A stretch of DNA of 64,000 bases from an uncultured Verrucomicrobiota bacterium (lineage in GTDB: Bacteria; Verrucomicrobiota; Kiritimatiellia; PWTM01). Below, in pieces: positions 10,114 through 48,945 of the stretch (position 1 is its first letter; each line of letters opens with the position of its first letter). The stretch lies in NCBI GenBank assembly GCA_964610105.1, contig CAZSUU010000011.1, forward strand, positions 21,394 to 85,393. The letters are read 5' to 3'. The position numbers were made by a program, and so were the translations under genes. Below the pieces are notes generated by a model that ran no database searches, was not told the DNA's origin, and was given only the letters and a program-made list of their open reading frames with translations.

Positions 10114-11925
10114 ATGAAGCACTGGGTCACGACGCCCGCCGATGAGGCCGCCTCGGAGCGCCTCGCGGGCGAGCTTGGCTGCCCTTCCCCCTTTGCGCGC
10201 ATCCTGGTCGCACGCGGGCTGGGTCAGGCGTCGGAGGCCCGGCGGTTCCTCCATCCGGCCCTTCGCGACCTCGGCGATCCCTTCGAGCTGCCGGGCATGC
10301 GCGCGGCGGCCGAAGCCGTGTGGTCGGCGCTGGCGAACGGTCGTCCGACGGTCGTTTACGGCGACTATGACGTCGACGGCCTGACGGCCACCGCTCTGCT
10401 CGTCGGTGTGCTGCGGAAGCTCGGGGCGCAGGTGGAGGCGTTCCTTCCACACCGTACCGACGACGGCTATGGACTGGTCCCCGAAACGCTCGACAAGTGC
10501 GTCGAGCGACACCACCCCCGCTTCCTGGTCACCGTCGACTGCGGGACCAACGCCGCGGCGGCGGTCGAGCGCGCTCGGGCCCACGGCGTGGACGTCGTCA
10601 TCACCGATCATCACCAGCCCTCGGGTCCGCCCGCCCCCGCCGTCGCCGTGGTGAATCCCCGCCTCGGGGACCCGGCGTCGCCCTGGTTCGACCTCTCGGG
10701 CGTCGGCGTGGCGTTCAAACTCGCCCACGCCGTGGTGAAGATCGGCCTTGAGCACGGTTCCGCGGCGGCCCGGGGCCTCGCTTCGCGGCTGAAGGACCAC
10801 CTGGACCTGGTGGTGCTCGGAACCGTGGCCGACTGCGTGCCGCTGCGGGGGGAGAACCGCATCTACGTTCGCCATGGCCTGCCCCTGCTGGACCGGCCGG
10901 CGGGGGTGGGCCTCCGGGCCCTGCGGGAGGTGGCGGCGGTGCGCGGCGCGACCGACACCTATCACGTTGGCTTCCTCCTGGGTCCGCGCCTGAACGCCTC
11001 CGGCCGCCTGGGCACGGCCGAGAAGGCGCTGGAACTGCTGATGACCGACGATCCCGGCCGCGGCCGCCGCCTGGCGGAGGAACTCGACGCGGCCAACCGG
11101 GAGCGCCAGGCGATCGAGAAACGGATCTTCGAAGAGGCGCGGGCGCTGATCGAAGCGCGGCACGCGCCCGAGCTCGAACCGGGCATCGTGATCGCCCACG
11201 AGGGCTGGCATCCCGGCGTGATCGGCATCGTCGCCTCGCGCCTCTGCGGCTTCTACAGCCGGCCGTCGATCGTGATCGCCCTGGACGGCGACTGCGGGCG
11301 CGGGTCCTGCCGGAGCGTCGAGGCGGTCGATCTCGTGGCGTGCCTGCGCGACTGCGCGGCGGTGCTGCCCCGCTACGGCGGTCACAGCATGGCCGCCGGA
11401 CTGGATGTCGCGCGGGATCGGATTGACGAGCTGCGCAGGTTGTTCTTCGAGGCGATCGGGCGGCGGGTGACGCTGGCGGCGCTCCATCCGGTGCTGCATG
11501 TCGATGCCTGGATCGGATTGAAGGACGCCGACGATCGGCTCTTGAAGGCGATGGCGGCCCTGCGGCCCTGCGGCCAGGGCAATCCGGAACCGGTGTGGGC
11601 CGTTGCGGGCGTGCGCCTGCTGTACCCCCGGAAGGTGGGGGACAGGCACCTCAAGATGACCGTGGAACAGGGCGGGGTGCGACGCGACGCTATCGCGTTC
11701 GGCTTCGGCGACCGGCCGATCCCGGAGGGCGCCGCGGACGTGGCCTTCGAGCTGAAGGAAAACACCTGGAACGGCGCCACCAGCCTGCAGCTCCACGTGC
11801 GCGACATCCGCTCGTCCCCATCCAACTCGAACTCTAAGGCGGCGAGCCGCAACCCAACGGTCCTGGACGCTCAATGCTCTCACTCCAATCCGTGCGTTCC
11901 TCCGTGCAACCGCGCCGCCTTCTGA
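10114..11925 (+). CDS. recJ: single-stranded-DNA-specific exonuclease RecJ (C-terminal ~33 codons read into a repeat element)
   Basis: DHH/DHHA1 motifs (VVYGDYDVDGLTATALL, VTVDCGT, ITDHHQP, GGHSMAAG); the ORF tail SKAASRNPTVLDAQCSHSNPCVPPCNRAAF is encoded by repeat copy A. Confidence 0.85.
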   Translation: MKHWVTTPADEAASERLAGELGCPSPFARILVARGLGQASEARRFLHPALRDLGDPFELPGMRAAAEAVWSALANGRPTVVYGDYDVDGLTATALLVGVLRKLGAQVEAFLPHRTDDGYGLVPETLDKCVERHHPRFLVTVDCGTNAAAAVERARAHGVDVVITDHHQPSGPPAPAVAVVNPRLGDPASPWFDLSGVGVAFKLAHAVVKIGLEHGSAAARGLASRLKDHLDLVVLGTVADCVPLRGENRIYVRHGLPLLDRPAGVGLRALREVAAVRGATDTYHVGFLLGPRLNASGRLGTAEKALELLMTDDPGRGRRLAEELDAANRERQAIEKRIFEEARALIEARHAPELEPGIVIAHEGWHPGVIGIVASRLCGFYSRPSIVIALDGDCGRGSCRSVEAVDLVACLRDCAAVLPRYGGHSMAAGLDVARDRIDELRRLFFEAIGRRVTLAALHPVLHVDAWIGLKDADDRLLKAMAALRPCGQGNPEPVWAVAGVRLLYPRKVGDRHLKMTVEQGGVRRDAIAFGFGDRPIPEGAADVAFELKENTWNGATSLQLHVRDIRSSPSNSNSKAASRNPTVLDAQCSHSNPCVPPCNRAAF

Positions 11926-12011
11926 GATTGTTCCGCCGCCCTTCGCAACGGAGAACCGTCACGCAAAACATCATACGCATCTGCGTATCATGTCTGGGCG
12001 GAACAATCTGA
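11836..12011 (+). repeat. copy A of a ~175-bp nested-hairpin repeat family (novel, unclassified)
   Basis: Shares ~85% identity with 23550-23726 (+) and 45953-46130 (-). Conserved 5' block aaggcggcgagcCgcaacc, block cgttcctccgtgcaaccgcgccgc, a 13-16 bp inverted repeat agattgttccgcc/ggcggaacaatct enclosing an inner hairpin atacgcatctgcgtat. Confidence 0.8.
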
Positions 12012-12131
12012 CTCCAACCTGCAACTCCTCTGACTCTCACTCCCCATCACACTCTCCATCCTCATCGAAGCCGGAGTTGCCGGGTTTCAAACCTCTTCGT
12101 ATCGGACGCCGAGAAGATGTATATTCGTTTC

Positions 12132-12566
12132 ATGAGCCATATTCCGAAAGGAATCGCGTTCTCACTGCTGCTTCTCGCGGCGGGCTGCGCGACGCCGGAG
12201 GCGCGCATCAGCCGGAACCCGGAGGTGTTCGCCGCCTTCCCGGCGGACGCCCAGGCATTGATCCGGAAGGGACAGGTCGCCATCGGCTTCACCAGGCCCA
12301 TGGTCGAGATGGCGATCGGACGGCCTTCGGTCGTGTCGATGCGACAGACCGCGGAAGGCGACGCGGAGATCTGGCAGTACATCGACTACGATCGCTATCC
12401 CTCCTATCGGCATGTGCCGATCCGTCACTACTACCGCGACAGCCGGGGACGGGTGTACACCGTCCACGATTTCCTGTGGGTCGATGACGACGTCTGGTAC
12501 GAACGCCAGCGGCTGCGCCTCGAGTTCCGGGACGGAAAGCTCGCGGCCATTGAGGGGACGCCTTGA
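12132..12566 (+). CDS. hypothetical lipoprotein
   Basis: MSHIPKGIAFSLLLLAAGC lipobox-type signal; ORF 12117..12566. Confidence 0.55.
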   Translation: MSHIPKGIAFSLLLLAAGCATPEARISRNPEVFAAFPADAQALIRKGQVAIGFTRPMVEMAIGRPSVVSMRQTAEGDAEIWQYIDYDRYPSYRHVPIRHYYRDSRGRVYTVHDFLWVDDDVWYERQRLRLEFRDGKLAAIEGTP

Positions 12567-12635
12567 GGTTGGGCGTCCGAAGCTCGAAATTGGGCGTCTC
12601 GTCGTTTCGTCGGTGGGGCTTGTTCCGCCTCCGCC

Positions 12636-14102
12636 TCACTCCAGCCGGCGCTTGATCTCGGCGGCCGTGGCGGGGCCGATCCCCGGGACGGCCGCGATCT
12701 CCTCCACGCCGGCCCGGCGCACCCGTGCGATGGATCCGAAGCGCTGGAGCAGTTGCCGCTTCCGCTTCTCCCCGATGCCTTCGATGTCGTCCAGCGCCGA
12801 TTCCTGGATGCGGCGCGCGCGCAGCGTGCGGTGGTAGGTGAGGGCGAAACGGTGCGCCTCGTCGCGGATGCGGCGCAGGATCGTCAGGGCCGGCGAGTCG
12901 AGGGGAAGCGACAGCACCGACTCCGCGCCGTCGGGCCCCCGGTGGATTTCCTCGAACCGCTTGGCCAGTCCGGCCGAGGGCAGATGGCCGAGGCCCAGGG
13001 CGCGGAGTTCGGCCCGCGCCGCGCGCAGCTGGGTCACGCCGCCGTCGATCAGCACCAGGTCCGGCGGCTGCCACGCGGGATCGGAGGCGCGGGCAAAGCG
13101 GCGCCGGATCACCTCGGCCATCATCGCGGGGTCATCGCTCGCCGCGACCGTGCGGATGCGGAAGAGCCGGTACCGGTTGCGCCGCGGACGGCCGTCCACG
13201 GCGCAGACGAGGCTGCCGACGGCGAGCGTGCCGCCGATGTTGGAGATGTCGTAGCACTCGATCGCCCGCGGCGGGGCGGCGAGGCCGAGCGCGCGGCCGA
13301 GCTCCTCCAGTCCGCGCTGCGCCTCGCCGGCGGCGATCTGCGGCGTCTTCATCGACCGCAGCGTGCGGCGGACGGCCTCGTGGAGCAGCCCCAGGGTGTC
13401 GCGCAGGGCGGCGGCGCGCTCGAAGTTCATCTCGGAGGACGCGGTCTCCATCGCGCTCCGGATCTCCTTCAGGTACTCGGGCCGCTCGCCGCGCAGGAAG
13501 GCGCACGCCTCGCCGACGCGATGGCGGTAATCCTCGGGGGCGATCCCGCCGAGGCACGGCGCCGAGCAGAACCGCAGGACATCGGCCAGGCAGTGCGTGT
13601 GATCCTCCGGCCCCGGGATGCGCGGCCGGCATCGGCGCAGGCCGAACCGACGCTCGACGAAATCGAGCGCCGCCCGCGCGGCGGCGGAGCTGGCGTAGGG
13701 ACCGAAGTAGAGCGCGCCGTCCTCGCGGCGGATCCGGCAGGTCGTGAACCGCGGGAAGGGGTCGTCCGGATTCACGCGGAGCAGCAGGAAGCGCTTGTCG
13801 TCCTTGAAGTCGATGTTGTACCGCGGCCGGTACTCCTTGATGAACTGCCCCTCGATCAGCACCGCCTCGGCCTCGGTCTTGAGCACGATGAGGTCGAGGT
13901 CGTCGATCGAATGCACGAGGCTCCGCAGTTTCGGCGCCCCGCTCCGCAGGGTGCTGAGGCGGAAGTAGGATCGCACGCGGCTGCGCAGCGAGGCGGCCTT
14001 GCCGACGTAGATCACCCGCCCCGTGCGGTCGCGCATGATGTACACGCCGGGCCGGTCGGGCAGGGCCGCCAGCTTGGCGCGGACCTTGGGGCTGATGTTC
14101 AT
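12636..14102 (-). CDS. uvrC: excinuclease ABC subunit C (short UvrC)
   Basis: N-terminal GIY-YIG (GVYIMRDRTGRVIYVGKAASLRSRVRSYF) and C-terminal helix-hairpin-helix (AAVPGIGPATAAEIKRRL); 488 aa is shorter than E. coli UvrC. Confidence 0.75.
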   Translation of the reverse strand: MNISPKVRAKLAALPDRPGVYIMRDRTGRVIYVGKAASLRSRVRSYFRLSTLRSGAPKLRSLVHSIDDLDLIVLKTEAEAVLIEGQFIKEYRPRYNIDFKDDKRFLLLRVNPDDPFPRFTTCRIRREDGALYFGPYASSAAARAALDFVERRFGLRRCRPRIPGPEDHTHCLADVLRFCSAPCLGGIAPEDYRHRVGEACAFLRGERPEYLKEIRSAMETASSEMNFERAAALRDTLGLLHEAVRRTLRSMKTPQIAAGEAQRGLEELGRALGLAAPPRAIECYDISNIGGTLAVGSLVCAVDGRPRRNRYRLFRIRTVAASDDPAMMAEVIRRRFARASDPAWQPPDLVLIDGGVTQLRAARAELRALGLGHLPSAGLAKRFEEIHRGPDGAESVLSLPLDSPALTILRRIRDEAHRFALTYHRTLRARRIQESALDDIEGIGEKRKRQLLQRFGSIARVRRAGVEEIAAVPGIGPATAAEIKRRLE

Positions 14103-15076
14103 GGCCCCGGCTCCGCCGCCGCCCTCCGGCGGGCGGCCTGCGCCGCGATGGCGATCGACAACGCCCCCGCCGATCCCAGCAGCACGACCGCCGCGGCGAC
14201 CGGAGCCCCGGCCTGCCGGAGGCCGATGGCGAGGGCGCCGAAGAGCAGCATCGATCCGAACAGGCGCCGGAACCCTCCGGCCGATACGTTGAGGGCCGCC
14301 CGCACGCCGAGCCGGATGCCCCCGAGCGCGCCCGCCAGCAGGAGGGCCGCCGCCGCGAAATCCGCGCGGCCGTGCAGGCCGTACCCCACGGCCCCGCTGG
14401 CGCCCGCGAGCGTGATGCAGACCAGGCTCGTGGCCACGGCGCGCACGGGGGCGATGCGGAGGCCGTTGATCATGAACGGCAGCAGCACCACCCCGCCCCC
14501 CACGCCGACCAGACCGGAGAACACCCCGGTGGCCAGACCCACGCCCGCCAGCGGCCAGACGGAGAGCCTTCGTCCTTCATGCACGAGGAGAAGGCGCGGC
14601 GGGAGACGCCAGATCCGCCGCTCGGGGCGCGGCCCGGCGGCCGACGGCGCCGTGCGCGCCACCCCCGCCGGCCGCAACGCCTCGCGGAGCACCCATAGGC
14701 CCATCGCGCTGAGGAACAGGGCGAGGATCGTCTGGAACACGGGCTCGGCCGTTCCGCGGGATTCGAGCAGGATCAGGACCCGCCGACCGATGTCGACGCC
14801 GGCCAGCATCGGGACGCCCATCGCGAGCCCGAGGACAAGGTCGGTCTGTCCCGCGCGCCTGTGCTGGAGCGCGGCCAGCAGCGAACTGCCGGCAATGAAC
14901 ACCATGCCCGTGCCCACCGCGTCCGCGGCGGGCATGCCGAGAAGATAGAGCGCCGGCGTCACCACCCAGCCGCCGCCGACTCCGAAGAACGCGCCGAGCT
15001 GGCCGCTGATGATTCCGATCAGCAGCAGGAGGATCACCACGGCTGCGGCCGGCAGCCCGAACGCGTCGAATTGCAT
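14099..15076 (-). CDS. TauE/SafE (DUF81) family sulfite/anion exporter membrane protein
   Basis: Polytopic membrane protein with duplicated GxGGG motifs (FFGVGGGWVVTP, LVGVGGGVVLLP); start overlaps uvrC stop (ATGA). Confidence 0.8.
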   Translation of the reverse strand: MQFDAFGLPAAAVVILLLLIGIISGQLGAFFGVGGGWVVTPALYLLGMPAADAVGTGMVFIAGSSLLAALQHRRAGQTDLVLGLAMGVPMLAGVDIGRRVLILLESRGTAEPVFQTILALFLSAMGLWVLREALRPAGVARTAPSAAGPRPERRIWRLPPRLLLVHEGRRLSVWPLAGVGLATGVFSGLVGVGGGVVLLPFMINGLRIAPVRAVATSLVCITLAGASGAVGYGLHGRADFAAAALLLAGALGGIRLGVRAALNVSAGGFRRLFGSMLLFGALAIGLRQAGAPVAAAVVLLGSAGALSIAIAAQAARRRAAAEPGP

Positions 15077-15106
15077 GCGGCCATCCTAGCAGCCCGATCG
15101 CCAACT

Positions 15107-15192
15107 CTGAACACCGAACACCGAACACTGAACACTGAACACTGAACACTGAACACCGAACACTGAACACCGAACCCTGAACACCGAACCCC
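15107..15192. repeat. heptanucleotide tandem repeat (YGAACAC)x12
   Basis: ctgaaca/ccgaaca units repeated ~12 times, 31 bp upstream of the TauE start (minus) and ~150 bp upstream of the DUF1343 start (plus). Confidence 0.9.
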
Positions 15193-15343
15193 TCCTCGGA
15201 CTCGGGATTTCAAACTGCGAGCTTCAAATCCGGGCGCGCGCGCGTGTACGCTGTGCGGAGCCGCTGGACATCGGGGCCCGCCGGCGAGACGGTTCCGAAC
15301 ACCGGACGGGTGTGACCTCCCGCGGTCCGGGCATTGGAAGCGC

Positions 15344-16492
15344 ATGTCGGTCCGCGCATTCACGACGGGGTTCGAGAACCTGCTCAGCCGCCACGGCGGC
15401 TGGCTGCGGGGCGCCCGGGTCGCGCTGGTCGCGCACGGCGCGAGCGTCAACCGCGGCGGGCGGCACTCGGCGGAGCTGCTGCGCGCGGCGGTCGGACGCC
15501 GTCTGACCTGCCTTCTCGCCCCCGAACACGGCTTTGCCGGGTCCGCCCCGGCGGGCGAACACGTGGGCCATGCGGTTCATCCGGGATGGGGCATTCCGGT
15601 CTTCTCGCTCTACGGCGCCACGCGGCGACCGACCCCCGGGATGCTCGCGCGGGCCGACGTGGTGGTCTTCGACCTCCAGGACATCGGCGTGCGCTGCTAC
15701 ACCTATGTCTCGACGCTGCGGCGGGTGATGGAAGCCTGCGCGGAGGCCGGGCGCCCGCTGATCGTGGCCGACCGTCCCGTCCCGCACGCCGCCGCGGCGG
15801 ACGGGCCGATGCTGAACCCGCGTTTCGCGAGTTTCGTGGGCGACATCCCGGCGCCGTGGGTGTACGGGCTGACGCCCGGCGAAACAGCGCGGTGGCTGGC
15901 CCACGAGCTGGGCCTCGGGCTCGACCTGCGCGTCGCGGCGGCGGGCGGATGGCGTCGGGACGGCCGCATGCCGCGCGGATGGCCTGCGGTCCCTCCCTCG
16001 CCGTCCCTCCGCACCCTCGCCTCCGCGCGCGGGTATCCGGCGACCGTGTGCACCGAGGCCCTGCCCGCGCTGGACTGCGACCGGGGCGGCGCGCTCTCCT
16101 TCCGGGTGCTCGGCGCGCCCGGGATGGACGCCGGCGCCGTTGCGGCGAGGGCGCGACAGACGACGGACGAAGGGGTTCGGCTCCGGCCGTGCAGCTACGC
16201 CCGGGCCGGCGTGCGGATGCAGGGGGTGCGCCTGGAGGTGTGCGACCCGTTGCGGTTTCGCCCGGCGGCGCTGGGCGTGGCGCTGCTGGCCGCGGTTCGG
16301 GATGTCCACGGGGATGAATTCCTCTGGCGCGCACCGGGCGCGCGGCCGGCCTTCTTCGACCGGCTGGCAGGGACCTCCACCCTGCGCCGGGCCCTTCAGC
16401 GCGGGGTCGGCGCGGCCCGCATCGTGGGCCGCTGGGAACAGGGGTTACGGGCCTTCGAGCGGCGGTGCGCGCCGTTCCGCCTCTACGATTGA
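15344..16492 (+). CDS. DUF1343 family protein (NamZ/YzbB-like exo-muramidase family)
   Basis: VALVAHGASV, HGF, VVVFDLQDIGVRCYTYVSTL characteristic of DUF1343. Confidence 0.65.
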   Translation: MSVRAFTTGFENLLSRHGGWLRGARVALVAHGASVNRGGRHSAELLRAAVGRRLTCLLAPEHGFAGSAPAGEHVGHAVHPGWGIPVFSLYGATRRPTPGMLARADVVVFDLQDIGVRCYTYVSTLRRVMEACAEAGRPLIVADRPVPHAAAADGPMLNPRFASFVGDIPAPWVYGLTPGETARWLAHELGLGLDLRVAAAGGWRRDGRMPRGWPAVPPSPSLRTLASARGYPATVCTEALPALDCDRGGALSFRVLGAPGMDAGAVAARARQTTDEGVRLRPCSYARAGVRMQGVRLEVCDPLRFRPAALGVALLAAVRDVHGDEFLWRAPGARPAFFDRLAGTSTLRRALQRGVGAARIVGRWEQGLRAFERRCAPFRLYD

Positions 16493-17649
16493 GGCGTCGC
16501 CGGGGCGGGCGCGGCCTTGCGCCCGACGGACCACTCGCGCATGACGCAGTATCCCACGGCCAAGAGGGTGGGACCGATGAAGACCCCGATGAAGCCGAAC
16601 GCGAAAATGCCGCCGATCGCCCCGAGCAGCACGAGGACGAACGGCAGCTTCGCGCCGCGGCTCGTCAGCCAGGGTTTGAGAAAATTGTCCACCGTGCTCA
16701 CCAGCAGGCCGCCCCACAGGAGGATGAAGATGCCGCGGCCGGTGTGACCGGTCGAGAACAGCCACAGCGCGGACGGCAGCCACACGACCACCGCGCCCAC
16801 CGGCACCAGCGAAACGAAGAAGGTCAGCAGGCCCAGCAACAGGGCCGAGGGCATGCCGACGATGAGAAAGCCGATGCCGGCCACGACGCCCTGCACGAGC
16901 GCGGTGCCGAGAACCCCGTGGACCGTCCCCCGGATCGTGCTTCCGGTGATCTCCAGCAGCCGCTGGGTGCGTTCGCCGGCCACGCGGTCGCAGACGTCGG
17001 AGAATTCCTTCCCGACCACTTCGCCGTGGACGAAGAAGAGGAACGCGATCAGGAGGCTCAGCACGAGCTGCAGCAGCCCCTTCGTGAGCGCCAGTCCCTG
17101 CTGCAGGATCCAGCTCGAATTGCGCACCGCGAGGTCCCGCAGGGCGATGAAGATCTTGTCCGCGTTGGCCGTCCAGTCCGACCAGCGCTCCGACACCAGC
17201 TTCCCCAGCAGCGGGAGGCGGACCAGCCACTCGGGCGGCGGATGCGCGGGATCGCTCGCCATGGCCTGGGTCCACTTCACGCCCTCCGATACGCCCTCGG
17301 CGAGGTTGGCGGTGACGACGGCCAGCGGAAACACGAGCGTGAGGGTGAACAGCAGGATCATCACGATGGCCGCGGTCACGCGGCGGCCCCCCAGCCGGTC
17401 GCGGATGCGCCGGTACACCGGCCACGAGGCGTAGCAGAGGATGGCCGCCCACAGGATCGGGGCGATGAAGGGGCGCAGGATCATCAGGCAGGCGACGACC
17501 AGCAGCACGACGGCGGCGATCTTGACCAGCAGCTCAATCGGGACCGGCTGACGCGCACCGGGCCTGGAGGACGAAGACGCCGTGGCGGAAGACGGGTCGG
17601 TTCTCTCGCTCATGCCGCCCATGATCGTCCAGCCGGGGCCTGTTGCCAA
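16483..17649 (-). CDS. AI-2E family transporter (PerM/YhhT, UPF0118)
   Basis: Polytopic membrane protein with AI-2E-type sequence; convergent overlap with the DUF1343 3' end; exact start among several Met codons uncertain. Confidence 0.75.
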   Translation of the reverse strand: MATGPGWTIMGGMSERTDPSSATASSSSRPGARQPVPIELLVKIAAVVLLVVACLMILRPFIAPILWAAILCYASWPVYRRIRDRLGGRRVTAAIVMILLFTLTLVFPLAVVTANLAEGVSEGVKWTQAMASDPAHPPPEWLVRLPLLGKLVSERWSDWTANADKIFIALRDLAVRNSSWILQQGLALTKGLLQLVLSLLIAFLFFVHGEVVGKEFSDVCDRVAGERTQRLLEITGSTIRGTVHGVLGTALVQGVVAGIGFLIVGMPSALLLGLLTFFVSLVPVGAVVVWLPSALWLFSTGHTGRGIFILLWGGLLVSTVDNFLKPWLTSRGAKLPFVLVLLGAIGGIFAFGFIGVFIGPTLLAVGYCVMREWSVGRKAAPAPATPQS

Positions 17650-17753
17650 GTCCTTCCGCGCTTCCGTTACAATTCGGCCATTGTGCTATCCGTTATTCCT
17701 ATGTAGTATCAGCGTACGCGAGTCCGGTTCAATGCCTCGATGGCGGGGAACCT

Positions 17754-18830
17754 ATGTACGAGGGCGACAAGACCATACGCATCTATCTCCGCGAGATCGG
17801 GGAAGTGAAGCTGCTGAGCCCGCGGGAGGAGATCGATCTGGCGGCGCGGATCAAGCGCGGCGACGAAAGCGCGCGCCAGTTGATGATCCGCGCCAACCTG
17901 CGCCTCGTCGTCAAGATCGCCCAGGACTATGCGCGCTACGGCCTGCCCCTCCTCGACCTGATCTCCGAGGGCAATATCGGCCTGATGAAGGCGGTGGGGC
18001 GGTTCGATCCGAAGAAGGGCGGGAAGCTCAGCACCTATGCGGCGTGGTGGATCAAGCAGGCGATCAAGCGCGCCCTCGCCAACCAGAGCAAGACGATCCG
18101 CCTGCCCGCCCACCTCGTCGACAAGATCGCCCGCATGCGCAGGACCGAGCGCAAGCTGACCGAGGATCTCGGCCGGGAGCCGACCGAGGAGGAGCTGGCG
18201 GTCGAGATGAACGTCGAGCGGTCCACCATCAGCCACTGGACCACCGTGGCCATCAAGCCGGCCTCGCTCGACGCCCCGATCAGCGACGATGAGAGCGGGA
18301 CGTTCAGCGAGATCGTAGGCGACGACCGGGCGCGGTCACCGTTCGAGGAGATCAACGACCGCCAGTTGATGGAGGAAGTGAAATCGCTGATGGACCGCCT
18401 CGACTACCGCGAGCGGGAGATTCTCAAGTACCGGTATGGTCTGCAGGGGGCGGCGACGGAAACGCTGGAGGATGTCGGCGTGCGGTTCAACGTCACGCGC
18501 GAACGGGTCCGCCAGATCCAGAACCAGGCGCTGGCACGGCTCCGGCAGATGCTGGAGGAGACGGGTCCCCGGCCGGAGATCGCGAATCGGGGGCTGTTCG
18601 AAGAGGACATTGCGGCCTTGCGCGACACCGAGGACGCGCGCGGCACGGCGACGGCCGGCTCTTCTCCGGCGTCCGCTTCCGCGCGCGTGGCGGGGAAGCC
18701 CCGGGGCCGGAAGGCCGCAGTGGCGGCCGGCAAGCCGGGACGTCCGCGGTCCCCCGCCGCCAGACGGAAGAAGCCGGCCTCGCGACCGCCGGGGAGACGA
18801 CCGAAGAAGAAAAAGGGCGGCAGGACGTGA
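17754..18830 (+). CDS. RNA polymerase sigma-70 family factor (RpoD-like, no region 1.1) with ~90-aa basic C-terminal tail
   Basis: Regions 1.2-4: IRIYLREIGEVKLL, DLISEGNIGLMKAVGRFD, YAAWWIKQAI, VGVRFNVTRERVRQIQNQALARLR; the tail is K/R/P-rich (GKPRGRKAAVAAGKPGRPRSPAARRKKPASRPPGRRPKKKKGGRT). Start MYEGDKT inside ORF 17643..18830. Confidence 0.8.
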   Translation: MYEGDKTIRIYLREIGEVKLLSPREEIDLAARIKRGDESARQLMIRANLRLVVKIAQDYARYGLPLLDLISEGNIGLMKAVGRFDPKKGGKLSTYAAWWIKQAIKRALANQSKTIRLPAHLVDKIARMRRTERKLTEDLGREPTEEELAVEMNVERSTISHWTTVAIKPASLDAPISDDESGTFSEIVGDDRARSPFEEINDRQLMEEVKSLMDRLDYREREILKYRYGLQGAATETLEDVGVRFNVTRERVRQIQNQALARLRQMLEETGPRPEIANRGLFEEDIAALRDTEDARGTATAGSSPASASARVAGKPRGRKAAVAAGKPGRPRSPAARRKKPASRPPGRRPKKKKGGRT

Positions 18831-19354
18831 GCATCGGCCGGATCACGCAGGCCATCCGCGATGTGCCCGACTTCCCCCGCGCGGGGATCGTCTTCAAGGA
18901 TCTGACGCCCGTGTTTCGCGATCCGGCGCTGTTCCGCGCCGCCGTGGCCCTGTTCTCCGACCGGCACGCGGGACACCGCATCGCCTACGTGGCGGCGATC
19001 GAGGCAAGGGGATTCCTGCTGGGGGGCGCCATCGCGGATCGCCTCGGCGCCGGCCTGGTGCCGATCCGGAAGAAGGGCAAGCTGCCTTGGCGCACGCTGG
19101 AGGCTTCTTACGAGCTCGAATACGGATCGGCCACCATCGCGGTGCACGAGGACGCCATCCCGCGCGGGGCGCGCGTGCTGCTCGTCGACGACCTGCTGGC
19201 CACCGGCGGGACCGCGGCCGCGGCGGCCGGGCTGATCGGACAACTGGGAGGCGACCTGGTCGAGATCGATTTCCTGGTCGAACTCGCCTTCCTCAACGGC
19301 CGGGCGAACCTCGCCGGCCACCCCGTGTTCGCCCCCGTGGTGTTTTCCGCCTGA
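18827..19354 (+). CDS. apt: adenine phosphoribosyltransferase
   Basis: PRTase motif VLLVDDLLATGGTAAAA; 175 aa; start overlaps the sigma-factor stop. Confidence 0.9.
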   Translation: MSIGRITQAIRDVPDFPRAGIVFKDLTPVFRDPALFRAAVALFSDRHAGHRIAYVAAIEARGFLLGGAIADRLGAGLVPIRKKGKLPWRTLEASYELEYGSATIAVHEDAIPRGARVLLVDDLLATGGTAAAAAGLIGQLGGDLVEIDFLVELAFLNGRANLAGHPVFAPVVFSA

Positions 19355-19510
19355 ACGGGGAGCGCCGATTCCCAGGGTGTCGCGCCGGACTCGCGGGATC
19401 ATCTCCCCATGGGGAAGGCGGAGGCGCCTTGCTTCGCCGAAGGCTGCGCACGGCAGACGGCGAGGCCTTGACGGCGGGAGGATCGGGCGCATAATGCGAT
19501 CGTATATGTC

Positions 19511-19596
19511 GCTGGGGGAGCCCCGGGTGCGGGGCTGAGATCCGCCGTCGGGCGGAAACCCCTCGAACCTGTTTGGGTCATTCCAGCGAAGGGAAA
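19511..19596 (+). ncRNA. TPP (THI-box) riboswitch
   Basis: CUGAGA ... ACCCcuCGAACCUGuuuGGgucAUuCCAGCGaAGGGAA matches the THI-element consensus; located ~100 nt upstream of thiC. Confidence 0.8.
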
Positions 19597-19693
19597 GCGG
19601 CACGCGGGCGACCGCCGCCACGTCCGGAACGGAATGGCGGCGTTGGTTTTCGCCGGCATCCTCCCCGCTGACCGACCCCGAGGAACGCATATC

Positions 19694-23549: not shown

Positions 23550-23726
23550 AAGGCGGCGAGCGGCAACCGAAAGGCCTTGGCCGTTCAAGGCACTCCCCTC
23601 CATGCCCTCCGTTCCTCCGTGCAACCGCGCCGCTTTCGGGGGTTGTTCGGCCGCCCTTCGCAACGGCGAACCCTCACGAGGAACATCATACGCATCTGGG
23701 TGTCATGTCGCGGCGGGACAATCTGA
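23550..23726 (+). repeat. copy B of the ~175-bp repeat family (degenerate hairpins)
   Basis: ~85% identical to copy A; inner hairpin degraded (catacgcatctgggtgtcatg). Confidence 0.75.
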
Positions 23727-31158: not shown

Positions 31159-31514
31159 GCCGCAGAGAAGCGGAGAGAAGTCCATGGGTGTGAATCATGT
31201 ATGCGCGATCGTCTCGCTGGCCCTGGCCGTCTCGGCGTCGGCCGGTCCGTTCCCGCCGCTCCGATCGCCCCTCGACACCAACGACGCCGCACGGGGGCGT
31301 TCAGGCACCTCCGACCGGGAGCGTCAATGAAGGACATCCCCAAGGCGTCAAGCCGCGACCCCATGGTCCTGGTCGCTCCACGCTCTCACTCCATTCCTTC
31401 CCTTCCCTCGTGCGATGGCGCCGCCTTTTCATTGCGTCTCCCGTGGAAGTGGGCTATCGCTTTGGTGCGTTTCATGCACGTGACCGAGATCTCCTTTGCG
31501 GGTTTGGGAAGAGG

Positions 31515-44758: not shown

Positions 44759-44858
44759 GGCGGAACCATCTCAGAAGGTGGCGCGGTTGCACGGAGGAAC
44801 GGAAAGAACGCAGTCGGCGCATTGCGCGACCAACACCCTTGGGTTGCAGCTCGCCGCC
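44759..44858 (-). repeat. partial copy D of the repeat family (5' half, reverse orientation)
   Basis: Reverse complement matches cgttcctccgtgcaaccgcgcc...tctgagatggttccgcc and aggcggcgagctgcaaccc; lacks the hairpin half; abuts the vapC stop. Confidence 0.65.
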
Positions 44859-45212
44859 TCAGGCGTCAAGGATCGGGATGCCGTACGAATGAAAGACGGC
44901 GTCGCGCGTCACCACGATCAGGTTCTCGACCTCGGCCTGCGCGATCAGCATGCGGTCGAACGGATCGGCGTGATGCGGCGGCAAGCCCTGCGCGCGCTCG
45001 GCGTGCTCCCGGCGGATGTCGAGCAGCCCGATGCCGTCTGATTGCAGGACATCGATATAGCCGGGTGGAAGTCGGAGCTTGTTCCTCGCCATCTTCAGAC
45101 CGATTTCCCAGATGGAAGCGACACTCAAATGCGCCTGGTTGCGTCCGTCGGAGATGGCGGACCGGGCGGCGGGCGACAAGCGGCCGGGATCGTCGATCCA
45201 CCAGATCGCCAC
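44859..45212 (-). CDS. PIN-domain VapC-like toxin (canonical start missing)
   Basis: SVASIWEIGLK, HHADPFDRMLIAQA, LIVVTRD PIN motifs. The called GTG start omits the conserved N-terminal LLLDSH strand, which is encoded upstream in frame without an ATG/GTG/TTG. Confidence 0.55.
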   Translation of the reverse strand: MAIWWIDDPGRLSPAARSAISDGRNQAHLSVASIWEIGLKMARNKLRLPPGYIDVLQSDGIGLLDIRREHAERAQGLPPHHADPFDRMLIAQAEVENLIVVTRDAVFHSYGIPILDA

Positions 45213-45952: not shown

Positions 45953-46130
45953 AGATTGTTCCGCCGTAAGATGACACGCAAATGCGTATGATGTTTTGGG
46001 TTCGGGTTCTCGGTTGCGATGGGCGACGGAACAATCTACCTGTAAGGCGATGCTACGGAACGGAAGAACGGGCGGACAAGAGGCAACGCATCGAGCGGCC
46101 AGGGCCGTTGGGTTGCGGCTTGCCGCCTTA
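45953..46130 (-). repeat. copy C of the ~175-bp repeat family (reverse orientation, both hairpins retained)
   Basis: agattgttccgcc ... ggcgacggaacaatct arms, inner acgcaaatgcgt hairpin, ccgttgggttgcggcttgccgcctt = reverse complement of the 5' block. Confidence 0.75.
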
Positions 46131-46143
46131 GGCCGGAGTAAAC

Positions 46144-48945
46144 ATGAGCACAATTACGCGTTGGCTGATAACAGGCAGCATGGTGGCCTGTGCGACACGG
46201 GGCGATCTGCCCGCCTCGTACCGCGTCGCCTGGATGACGCCGTCGCAGGATTCGCTCGATTCCATGCCCCTATCCGGTCGCCGCGGCGCCGGGGCGAACG
46301 TCTGGGTGCAGGACGGATCGCTCTGGTTCTACCTGGCGCACAACGGCGCGTACGACGAACAGGGCCGACTGTTGAAACTCGGCTGCGTGCGCCTCACGCC
46401 AGTCGATTTCGCGCTCGGCGCCGACGGGTTCCGCCAGGAACTCGATCCGCACACCGGAACGATCCGCCTCGAACAGAACGGATTCAAGGCAACGCTCTGG
46501 TTTGCCGGCGAGACGCTGATCGTGGAGTCCATGTCGGATCCCGGCCGCGCGTTGGAGGTGTCGTTCGCCACCTGGCGGGACCGTGAACTCGAAAACGTCC
46601 GGGTCGACATGATGGGGGCCCGGGGCAGTTTCACGCCGGATCGCGTCCGCGCCGGCCCGGACGGCATCTCGTGGTTCCATCGCAACGCCGACGCGCCGGG
46701 GGATGTTGTCGGGATGGCGCGGGCACAGGGCATCCCGGCGGAAGCGGTCTACGATGTCACCAGTCGCCGGTTGTTCGGCGGCGCGCTGGCTGTTGACGGC
46801 GGCCTCTCCATGCCGACAGAAGCCGCGGTGCGGTGGCAGTTCTGGAACGGCAGGGCCTGGACAGGGCGCACCGCCGCCCGTACGTCGCACGTTCTCGCCA
46901 TCCGGCTCGGCGCGGGACTCGACGCGGACCCGGAGTCGTGGATCCGGGAGGCGAAGGCCCTCCTGCCGCCCGCCGCCCGGGAAGCCGCCCGCGCCGATGA
47001 ACTCGAGCGGTGGAACGAATTCTGGTCCCGCAGCCACATTTGGATTGCCGATTGCCGATTGCCGAATGCCGAATCCGGGCAAGACGGCGTCACAGAGACC
47101 GCGAGTTCAACAAATCGACAATCAACAATCGGCAATCGGGAATCCGATGTCTGGCTCATCGGCCGCAACTACGCGCTGTTCCGCTACATGCTGGCCTGCA
47201 ACCGGGACGGCGAGCTTCCGCTGCTCTTCAACGGCGGTATCTTCACCACCGACAACAACGGGCGGATCAAGGGCAACAACAACGACGAGCTTCCGACTTT
47301 CGAGGGGGAGCCGGTCACGCCCGATTTCCGCCGCTGGATGGGGTGTCGGTTTATGTCGCAGAACCAACGCTGGCTCGGCTGGCCGACGCTGGCGAACGGC
47401 GACGCCGACCTGCTTTGGCCATCGCTGAGGTTCTACCGCGACCGGTCCGTCACCGCCGCGGCGCGCGCGAAGATCCACGGGGCGGAGGGCGTGGTCTACC
47501 CCGAGCCGCTCGACGTGTGGGGGCTCTGCTGCGTCGCGCCCCGGCCCGACGGGCTGTGCGGGGCCGACCACCTGACCTACCACTTCTCCATGATGCTCGA
47601 ACACGCCTGGATGGCGCTGCAGGCGCGCGACGCGCTGGGCATTTCCCTGGCGAAGGACCTGGCATGGATCGAGGGAACGGTGCGGTTCTACGACAGCTTC
47701 TATCGCGCGCAGTGCAAACAGCGGACCGGGAGGGAACTCGGTGACGACGGCCGGCTCGTGCTCTACCCGACGTGCGGGCTGGAATTCGCGGGCGGCGCGA
47801 CGGACGCCATCGAAGTCGTCAGCGGATTGAGGCGCATCACGGCCGGGTTGCTGGCGCTGCCTGATCTGCCCGCGGCCTCGCGTGACCGCCTCCGCCGCAT
47901 CCAGGCCACGCTGCCCGAATTGCCCGTCGGAAACCGGCAGGGCCGGCGCTCGCTGCTTCCCGCAAGGAAATGGGAACGCGACTACAACAAGTGGGAGCCC
48001 ATCGAGATGTACGCCGCGTGGCCGTACCGGCTCGTCGGCATCACGCGGCCGGAGACCCTGCAACTCGCGCGGGACACGTGGGAGACGGTGCCCGGCGATC
48101 GCGCCCGCCTGTGCAAGCAGGACTTCTCGTGGATGGCGAACGTGGCGAACATGGCGGCACTGGCGTGGCCGGAGGAGGCGAAGAAGCGCGCGATCTGGAA
48201 GATGGCCAACACGGCGGCGCCGCAGGCCCGCTTCCCGGCGTTCTTCGGCCCCGGCCACGACTGGCTGCCCGACCACAACTGGGGCGGCAGCGGCATGACC
48301 GGCATCCAGGAAATGCTCCTCGCGCCGGAACCGGGACCGAACGGCAAGCTCAACCTGTTCCCCGCGTGGCCGGCGGATTGGGATGTCGATTTCAAATTGC
48401 ATGCGCCCGGGCCGACTGTCGTCGAAGCTGTGTTGCGCGGCGGGAAGCTGGAATCGCTGAAAGTCACGCCGGAATCACGGACAGCGGACCTTGTCAACTG
48501 GCTTGGCAAAGCGCCGCCCTACACGCCGTCGTCCCCTCCGCTGAGTCAGGGCAGGGTGGTCACGGTTTCCAGCCAGTTCGACCAGCCGGGCTACGATCCG
48601 GCGCGCGCGGTCGACGGCGATCTGAAGACGCGCTGGGCGTCCGACTTCCAGGCCCGTTCGGGATGGCTTGCCGTGGACCTCGGAGAGGAGCATGAAATCG
48701 GCCGCGTCTGGATCAGCGAGATCGAGTGGCCGGAGACGGAGGAGTTCGCGATCGAGGTGAAGCAGGACGGAGAATGGAAGCAAATCGCGCGCGGCACGAC
48801 CATCGGGGCGGACAAGTCCATCGAGTTGCCGCCCGTCCGCTCGCGTGAAATCCGGCTGAACGTCATCAAGGCCAAACGCCCCGTCAACATCAACGAATTC
48901 CAGGTTTTTTCGTCCGATAGAACGCCATCGGATGGATCGCCGTGA
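46144..48945 (+). CDS. GH95/DUF5703-like glycoside hydrolase, paralog 2, with C-terminal discoidin domain
   Basis: N-terminal TPSQDSLDSMPLSGRRGAGANVWV (GH95-like PLGNG-type motif), paralogous to 63048.. and 53651..; C-terminal F5/8 type C (DGDLKTRWASD...NEFQVFSS). Confidence 0.7.
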   Translation: MSTITRWLITGSMVACATRGDLPASYRVAWMTPSQDSLDSMPLSGRRGAGANVWVQDGSLWFYLAHNGAYDEQGRLLKLGCVRLTPVDFALGADGFRQELDPHTGTIRLEQNGFKATLWFAGETLIVESMSDPGRALEVSFATWRDRELENVRVDMMGARGSFTPDRVRAGPDGISWFHRNADAPGDVVGMARAQGIPAEAVYDVTSRRLFGGALAVDGGLSMPTEAAVRWQFWNGRAWTGRTAARTSHVLAIRLGAGLDADPESWIREAKALLPPAAREAARADELERWNEFWSRSHIWIADCRLPNAESGQDGVTETASSTNRQSTIGNRESDVWLIGRNYALFRYMLACNRDGELPLLFNGGIFTTDNNGRIKGNNNDELPTFEGEPVTPDFRRWMGCRFMSQNQRWLGWPTLANGDADLLWPSLRFYRDRSVTAAARAKIHGAEGVVYPEPLDVWGLCCVAPRPDGLCGADHLTYHFSMMLEHAWMALQARDALGISLAKDLAWIEGTVRFYDSFYRAQCKQRTGRELGDDGRLVLYPTCGLEFAGGATDAIEVVSGLRRITAGLLALPDLPAASRDRLRRIQATLPELPVGNRQGRRSLLPARKWERDYNKWEPIEMYAAWPYRLVGITRPETLQLARDTWETVPGDRARLCKQDFSWMANVANMAALAWPEEAKKRAIWKMANTAAPQARFPAFFGPGHDWLPDHNWGGSGMTGIQEMLLAPEPGPNGKLNLFPAWPADWDVDFKLHAPGPTVVEAVLRGGKLESLKVTPESRTADLVNWLGKAPPYTPSSPPLSQGRVVTVSSQFDQPGYDPARAVDGDLKTRWASDFQARSGWLAVDLGEEHEIGRVWISEIEWPETEEFAIEVKQDGEWKQIARGTTIGADKSIELPPVRSREIRLNVIKAKRPVNINEFQVFSSDRTPSDGSP
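47044..47147 (+). repeat. in-frame 104-bp palindromic element built from heptamer repeats (attgccg x3 ... cggcaat x2) inside the GH95-like CDS
   Basis: gattgccgattgccgattgccgaatgccgaatccg ... cgacaatcaacaatcggcaatcgggaatccg; encodes IADCRLPNAESGQDGVTETASSTNRQSTIGNRES, absent from paralog 63048.. (WNRSHIFVAKAGEGAYNL); locally low GC. Confidence 0.55.

Follow-up and report, generated by a model that had tools for sequence, protein, structure and literature searches.

A heptanucleotide tandem repeat of variable unit number between divergent tauE and namZ genes of an uncultured Verrucomicrobiota bacterium

Whether bacterial heptamer repeats have a function has been a question ever since their over-representation was noticed, and a tract of 12 such units between two divergent genes of an uncultured Verrucomicrobiota bacterium raises the question in concrete form: does the tract control its neighbors, or is it one more repeat of a common kind? 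A reading made from the sequence alone had noticed the tract and suggested that slippage within it could alter promoter spacing (phase variation) or that its units could serve as arrayed transcription factor sites. Here, we analyze the tract within its window, that is, the whole stretch of 64,000 nt under analysis (contig CAZSUU010000011.1; G+C content 67%), together with the corresponding locus of related strains and with heptamer arrays from other genomes. We conclude that the YGAACAC tract is a further case of the known and common class of heptanucleotide SSRs.

Structure and Setting of the Tract

TRF combined with an in-register reading places a heptamer array of 12 units at 15108–15191 on the plus strand, 10 of them exact YGAACAC and two CGAACCC. 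Units 1–6 read TGAACAC CGAACAC CGAACAC TGAACAC TGAACAC TGAACAC, and units 7–12 read TGAACAC CGAACAC TGAACAC CGAACCC TGAACAC CGAACCC. The sequence-only reading had likewise counted 12 units, and its placement of the tract (15107–15192) is right except for the two ends, each of which is off by one; its description of the units as varying only at the first position, by C/T alternation, does not hold because units 10 and 12 have A replaced by C at position 6 and the order of the first positions (T C C T T T T C T C T C) is irregular. TRF itself delimits 15103–15189, with a period of 7 (12.4 copies, score 125) and a period of 14 (score 139). A search of the window for the 13-mer GAACACYGAACAC with at most one mismatch returned 11 matches, all 11 of them within the tract, where shuffles lead one to expect 0.12; the tandem repeat is real and far exceeds chance. 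Its head-to-tail 7-nt units and a length beyond chance expectation qualify the tract as a heptanucleotide long SSR (LSSR). A degenerate unit, CCAACTC (15101–15107, plus strand), precedes the array in register and is kept in all three alleles described below; it forms the fixed left edge of the tract.

The tract lies in the 267-bp intergenic gap between the gene for a TauE/SafE-family membrane permease (PF01925; 14099–15076, minus strand) and namZ (15344–16492, plus strand), which has NamZ_N and NamZ_C domains (formerly DUF1343) and belongs to an exo-β-N-acetylmuramidase family. This is the position between a TauE/SafE start at 15076 and a DUF1343 gene at 15344 that had been given for it before. 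The tract is non-coding, and its T-units place TGA in all three frames of the plus strand. From the array, which reads GTGTTCR on the TauE strand, it is 31 nt to the TauE start codon; the namZ start codon is 152 nt downstream, and the array is in sense orientation to this gene. On the minus strand tauE is followed by uvrC (12636–14102), and because the uvrC start is overlapped by the TauE stop codon the two genes are probably part of the same operon.

A consensus scan of 14900–15500 found no sigma-70-type promoter, and a scan of the same interval for terminators with a T-run found none. Reading the TauE-proximal upstream region (15077–15100, minus strand) directly, we noted TAGGAT (15083–15088, minus strand), which stops 6 nt short of the ATG and might serve as the −10 element of a leaderless TauE mRNA; alternatively, the AGGA within it could be a Shine–Dalgarno element. 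Weak promoter-like hexamers for TauE may be arranged on the minus strand as TTCAGA-17-TAGGAT-6-ATG, with the −35 element at the junction of tract and flank, and a weak pair for namZ, TTCAAA-18-TACGCT, may lie downstream of the tract; if the hexamers are read in this way, the tract would be upstream of both core promoters. RNA folding predicts that the tract is fully unpaired on the plus strand, and the intergenic region folds no better than shuffles on either strand (z +1.3 and +1.2). Rfam gave no match in 14950–15450 at E ≤ 1 and, in a gathering-threshold scan of the window, no match at the tract; the sole Rfam match in the window is a TPP riboswitch aptamer (RF00059) at 19504–19612 on the plus strand, which scores 66.9 bits (gathering score, 54.3).

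Beside the tract, where the intergenic region is richest in AT, there is an imperfect inverted repeat, GGATTTCAAACT-GCG-AGCTTCAAATCC (15205–15231), whose arms (15205–15216 and 15220–15231) are separated by a 3-nt gap and form 10 of 12 pairs. A short hairpin had been proposed here at 15203–15233; the inverted repeat is indeed present, but it is imperfect and limited to 15205–15231. In one relative (L319, see below) one arm carries an uncompensated T>C change, and the stem is not conserved. We rejected a conserved RNA or terminator as an explanation in view of the incomplete pairing, the lack of a T-run, the uncompensated change, and the fact that both genes diverge away from the element. The inverted repeat could be an operator or the carrier of promoter elements.

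Variation among Strains and Heptamer Arrays in Other Genomes

Compared with the 12 units of the window allele, the tract in assembly ERZ25038401 (L326 and L328; about 98.4–98.9% nucleotide identity to the window) has eight units (TGAACAT CGAACAC CGAACAC TGAACAC TGAACAC CGAACAC TGAACAC TGAACCC), and a Logan contig (L327) agrees with the right part of this 8-unit tract. Assemblies ERZ28614697 (L319) and ERZ15185093 (L320), with 95–97% nucleotide identity and the same gene order, have five units each (TGAACAC CGAACAC CGAACAC TGAACAC TGAACCC). All alleles share one register, in that CCAACTC is followed directly by TGAAC at the start, a GAACCC unit stands at the end, and (C)TCCTCGG comes next; elsewhere in the intergenic region (152 nt), the four strains differ by no more than a few point substitutions. 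As expected of an LSSR, the tract thus varies in length by whole units in these four strains between flanks that are 95–99% identical. A low-coverage contig (L006) agrees with the 12-unit allele over units 1–7, apart from one variant unit. The allele lengths differ by 21, 28, and 49 bp, and helical phasing across the tract is therefore not conserved. The counts of 5, 5, 8, and 12 units in independent assemblies, in the same register, bear out the earlier claim that the tract can undergo slipped-strand changes; invariance of the unit number, which the sequence-only reading had named as evidence against itself, is not what these strains display. The variation seen is variation between strains, and this comparison carries the decisive weight in the analysis.

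Further evidence comes from short-read contigs. Logan contigs built with k = 31 (L001–L005), which were found through exact protein matches, cover window positions 11979–15136 and 15146–19492 at 100% identity. All of them end within the tract, on each side exactly where the last k-mer anchored in the unique flank runs out, and L003 among them occurs in at least 20 samples. The 100%-identical strain is carried by samples that include runs ERR4519283, ERR4519286, ERR4529291, ERR4539292, and ERR14964780 and assembly ERZ15185073. Because the contigs stop at the limit of the unique flank, pure-tract 31-mers must be non-unique in those samples. The breaks could result from length heterogeneity or from additional YGAACAC arrays, be they in this genome or in the community around it.

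The tract is restricted to this lineage. NamZ homologs at 58–60% identity have different neighbors and no tract, and the search for NamZ relatives in metagenomes yielded no orthologous locus and only homologs that did not exceed 40% identity; these loci served solely to sample the background of tandem-repeat periods. By the named homologs of NamZ and of the DUF5703 protein described below, the organism belongs to the PVC group (Kiritimatiellae, Verrucomicrobiota, and Lentisphaerae). A tblastx comparison of the window with the repeat-bearing loci from other genomes (at least 119) found no close relative, and two cluster members (P0242 and P0243, 52 aa) were discarded as unrelated marine sequences without similarity to the window. 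From these comparisons the tract appears to be young and lineage-specific, with whole-unit changes that are far faster than substitutions in its flanks, and such outpacing is the signature of slipped-strand mispairing; the tract is most probably a hypermutable SSR. That it is kept in all four strains, always with at least five units, could reflect selection rather than recency.

The strains also differ by a dispersed element of about 175 nt. The window holds at least three full copies of it (11835–12011 and 23550–23726 on the plus strand, 45953–46130 on the minus strand) and three partial copies (44759–44859 and 1274–1378 on the minus strand, 31342–31427 on the plus strand), all within 64 kb and 72–83% identical. 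The element matches no Rfam family and has two long-range stems, AAGGCGGCG...CGCCGCCTT and AGATTGTTCCGCCG...CGGCGGAACAATCT; strains of 95–99% identity differ in whether given sites carry it, and it looks like a MITE-like mobile element. Copies in ERZ25038401 are found at L326 3811–3976 and L328 1–165; in this 8-unit strain an insertion of the 175-nt element follows position 15088 and lies 12 nt upstream of the TauE start codon, and a further copy stands after the equivalent of window position 18836. The element is absent from L319 at the 11835 site, where L319 633–793 (vs. window 11830–12086) has G-poor hexamer runs of the AACTCC, AACTCA, and AACTCG kind. The left flank of the tract, CCAACTC, resembles these AACTCC-like hexamers, and G-poor, C/A/T-rich low complexity seems to be typical of intergenic DNA in this lineage.

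The 64-kb window contains two heptamer regions, the tract at 15108–15191 and a region at 47042–47144, and related PVC MAGs carry many. The second region lies in frame inside an ORF (46144–48945, plus strand) for a 933-aa DUF5703_N / F5/8-type-C protein. It consists of GATTGCC repeated three to five times, about 30 nt, and then a partly reverse-complementary array (...CAATCGACAATCAACAATCGGCAATCGGGAATCC), and it encodes an expanded loop, IADCRLPNAESGQDGVTETASSTNRQSTIGNRESD, at a place where most homologs have a 10-aa loop. Some homologs at 75–91% identity (P0121, P0122, and P0127) have heptamer-encoded peptides of other lengths there, for example, NRQSEIGNRNSD and IADCRMPNAE, and therefore heptamer arrays expand and contract inside a coding loop. 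Arguably, this coding region and the 175-nt mobile element are more unusual than the tract.

Other YGAACAC arrays, for which a search had been suggested on the basis of the sequence alone, are numerous: in a genome collection with one genome per species, arrays of at least four units occur at a minimum of 119 loci. Among the matches listed (L007–L125), the arrays have 4–18 units, are concentrated in the PVC group and Bacteroidota, and come mainly from Verrucomicrobiota, Kiritimatiellae, Victivallales, Planctomycetota, and Flavobacteriia; several MAGs have many loci, with at least eight in the Verrucomicrobiota MAG CAZYXU01. Very often the listed arrays directly adjoin further heptamer arrays, which keep the register and have units such as TGACCAC, TGGCCAC, TGCCAAC, TGAAGAC, TGGAGAC, and TGAATAC. 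TRF applied to the listed loci (789 kb) found 227 period-7 arrays with about 90 distinct units, and in 459 kb of unrelated metagenome loci a period of 7 or 14 is more common than any other short period. The idea that all heptamer arrays have an "ACTG/CTGA core" is not supported, since most of the approximately 90 units lack it.

As a control, viral contigs were scanned with permuted units of the same composition, counting loci with at least four units. YGAACAC itself was found at 13 loci, and the permuted units YGACAAC, YGCAACA, YCAAGAC, YACAGAC, and YGAAACC were found at 36, 6, 28, 4, and 26 loci, respectively. We, therefore, rejected YGAACAC as a special cross-phylum motif; given that units of the same composition are as frequent in viral contigs or more so, its recurrence is what generic heptamer slippage would yield and does not count as evidence for a conserved motif. 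A literature search for the literal unit sequence returned only irrelevant primer matches, and to our knowledge the YGAACAC unit has not been singled out previously.

Possible Roles of the Tract

We consider it likely that the tract is a heptanucleotide LSSR that leaves the divergent genes and their control region unaffected or, at most, changes them in a quantitative way. The tract would have arisen recently in the lineage, and for its mechanism and any effect on expression we infer the following: slipped-strand mispairing in replication or repair would cause the gain and loss of whole 7-nt (and 14-nt) units in a tract that, because the array begins 31 nt from the ATG, would most probably lie upstream of the TauE core promoter or within the TauE 5′ leader, and upstream of whatever drives namZ. 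Changes in unit number would then shift the spacing of the two control regions from each other or the length of the leader in 7-bp steps without constituting an on/off switch.

A stronger role would make the tract a phase-variable or rheostat contingency locus, in which unit number alters promoter geometry or 5′-UTR length and with it the expression of tauE–uvrC and/or namZ; we regard this as unlikely. The tract is suitably placed, being intergenic, 31 nt from the TauE ATG, and between divergent genes, its units differ in close strains (5, 8, and 12) by steps of 21, 28, and 49 bp that alter helical phasing, and short-read assemblies from many samples break in it. In addition, intergenic SSRs affect transcription and 5′-UTR processing in Haemophilus influenzae (PMC8262952, PMC12721329). 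However, a tract of 35–84 bp is too long for a −35/−10 spacer (16–18 bp) and does not lie in an ORF, no promoter consensus was found in the scan, and related genomes commonly contain heptamer arrays that differ widely in sequence. In ERZ25038401 the 175-nt insertion separates the tract from the TauE ATG and both ORFs are intact; therefore, the tract need not stand at a set distance from the start codon. Contingency loci are typically surface, host-interaction, or restriction-modification genes. The genes here are of a housekeeping class (a TauE-family permease, UvrC, and the peptidoglycan-recycling NamZ), the organism is an uncultured PVC bacterium known from metagenome assemblies alone, and the variation seen is that between strains. 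Phase variation by promoter spacing, which the sequence-only reading had put forward, is thus disfavored, and in part contradicted, by the length of the tract as a spacer, the housekeeping genes, and the tolerated insertion. As for the suspicion that the tract or its length was made by short-read misassembly, assemblies with k = 31 do break within the tract, but in four samples independent ENA assemblies reach into or across it with the same flanks and register, and the low-coverage contig repeats units 1–7 of the window allele; we give an artifact hardly any credence.

It is improbable, and clearly more so than a contingency locus, that the tract works as RNA, its CA-rich, G-poor plus-strand repeat being transcribed as an unstructured leader that serves as a ribosome stand-by site or translation enhancer or as a binding array for S1, a cold-shock protein, or some other RNA-binding protein, a role already suggested for TAACTGA repeats. 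An argument for such elements comes from the position of start codons (ORFs of at least 120 aa) in 86 YGAACAC arrays of other genomes with both flanks, analyzed by a test that is symmetric for strand, which was chosen because reverse-complement units carry GTG codons that extend antisense ORFs into the arrays. A start codon occurs within 30 nt downstream in the sense direction at 26 arrays and in the antisense direction at 12 (P = 0.03), that is, about twice as often in sense, and within 15 nt in genomes with GC content below 55% the numbers are 11 and 1. This bias matches the placement of TAACTGA repeats, for which binding of S1, Csp, or CsrA has been suggested (MacGregor 2015, PMC4679880), and it hints that some arrays of the YGAACAC kind act at the RNA level; it could equally be a replication-strand bias. 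A Nostoc preprint reports modest effects from deleting heptamer repeats at recO and recF, and the tract itself is unpaired in the predicted fold and in sense orientation to namZ. Nevertheless, the tract departs from the start-codon pattern in that the start codon closest to it, that of TauE, belongs to the other strand, and its end is 152 nt before the ATG of the sense gene, namZ; moreover, the AT-rich stretch with the putative promoter-like hexamers for namZ is downstream of the tract and would leave it untranscribed in the sense direction, and copy number is not conserved. There is similarly little probability in the broader idea that CA-rich heptamer arrays with an "ACTGA core" (YGAACAC, TAACTGA, and relatives) are cross-phylum transcribed leader elements whose copy number tunes translation. 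PVC bacteria and Bacteroidota make little use of Shine–Dalgarno sequences, and in these groups such leaders could be unstructured ribosome landing pads or arrays for RNA-binding proteins. If the leader reading were true, the window tract would act on namZ or, in antisense, on tauE–uvrC, and the 5-, 8-, and 12-unit alleles would be functional expression variants.

That the units form an array of transcription factor sites, for example, LexA half-sites acting on the uvrC operon or direct repeats for a response regulator, is very improbable. The units contain GAACA, uvrC is in the adjacent operon, and LexA of Verrucomicrobia is the only factor with a GAACA half-site that we know of. Its operator is TGTTC-N4-GAACA, and mutating either arm abolished binding (PMC4951493), whereas the GAACA half-sites of the tract, although beside a DNA-repair gene, have no inverted TGTTC partner and no 4-nt spacing and are arranged as direct repeats instead. 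The TGTTC-N4-GAACA dyad with at most one mismatch has no match in the whole window, direct repeats at 7-bp spacing are out of helical phase and unfit for a LexA dimer, the number of sites ranges from 5 to 12 among strains, and identical arrays stand beside unrelated genes in many phyla. With the dyad absent from the window and heptamer arrays generic in these phyla, the transcription factor sites proposed earlier are likewise disfavored.

The reading as a heptanucleotide LSSR gives the tract by itself little weight beyond that of a strain marker and a warning of breaks in short-read assemblies of this organism. Its natural series of 5-, 8-, and 12-unit alleles, with conserved flanks and beside a DNA-repair operon, is a test case for a cis-regulatory role of heptamers.

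Relation to Known Heptamer Repeats

Upstream of the hmw1A and hmw2A genes of H. influenzae, the repeat unit is reportedly ATCTTTC, with a copy number inversely related to expression. These 7-bp repeats have a shown effect on expression and lie between promoter and start codon, with a copy number that varies between isolates (PMC8262952, PMC12721329); copy number varies here as well. The hmw tracts belong to surface adhesins of a host-adapted pathogen, whereas the present tract adjoins housekeeping genes of an organism known from metagenome assemblies alone.

TAACTGA repeats are intergenic direct repeats found in marine Beggiatoaceae, Cyanobacteria, and some Bacteroidetes (MacGregor 2015, PMC4679880). 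As with the present tract, they are often mixed with other heptamers, assemblies often break at them, and strains differ by 7-nt indels; the T-units of the tract, when read across the junction of ...AC and TGAAC..., share the ACTGA core with TAACTGA. [quoted passage not shown] Both in its unit and in lacking a forward, start-proximal placement, the tract is thus distinct from repeats of the TAACTGA type; a placement of that kind does occur at YGAACAC arrays of other genomes.

A further parallel is offered by the heptamers GGGAATC of Xanthomonas and GGGGAYT of Nostoc (Rehm et al. 2015, PMC4692102), which, from one close species to another, are likewise extensively variable in length and sequence at the same intergenic position: orthologous intergenic tracts of Xanthomonas differ in length between species, and the length of intergenic Nostoc tracts varies between close species. 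Their units are G-rich and capable of forming G-quadruplexes (PMC4692102), whereas YGAACAC, with a single G in each unit, lacks this capacity. Like the present tract, they have no link to pathogenicity genes (PMC4692102). Together with the cyanobacterial STRR of Calothrix PCC 7601, as cited in PMC4692102, they form many intergenic tracts per genome.

The class to which the tract belongs was described by Mrazek, Guo, and Shah (2007), and as cited in PMC4679880 and PMC4692102 that study found heptanucleotides to be the most abundant class of prokaryotic LSSRs and proposed polymerase slippage as their cause. It defined the class statistically and genome-wide, whereas the present tract is known from 64 kb of one genome. 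Long heptamer SSRs, as the cited accounts of Mrazek et al. (2007) describe them, resemble the tract in that they are composed of perfect or near-perfect head-to-tail 7-nt units, are intergenic and much longer than chance allows, and display 7-nt length steps between relatives, a scattered distribution over the phylogeny, and a proposed origin by polymerase slippage.
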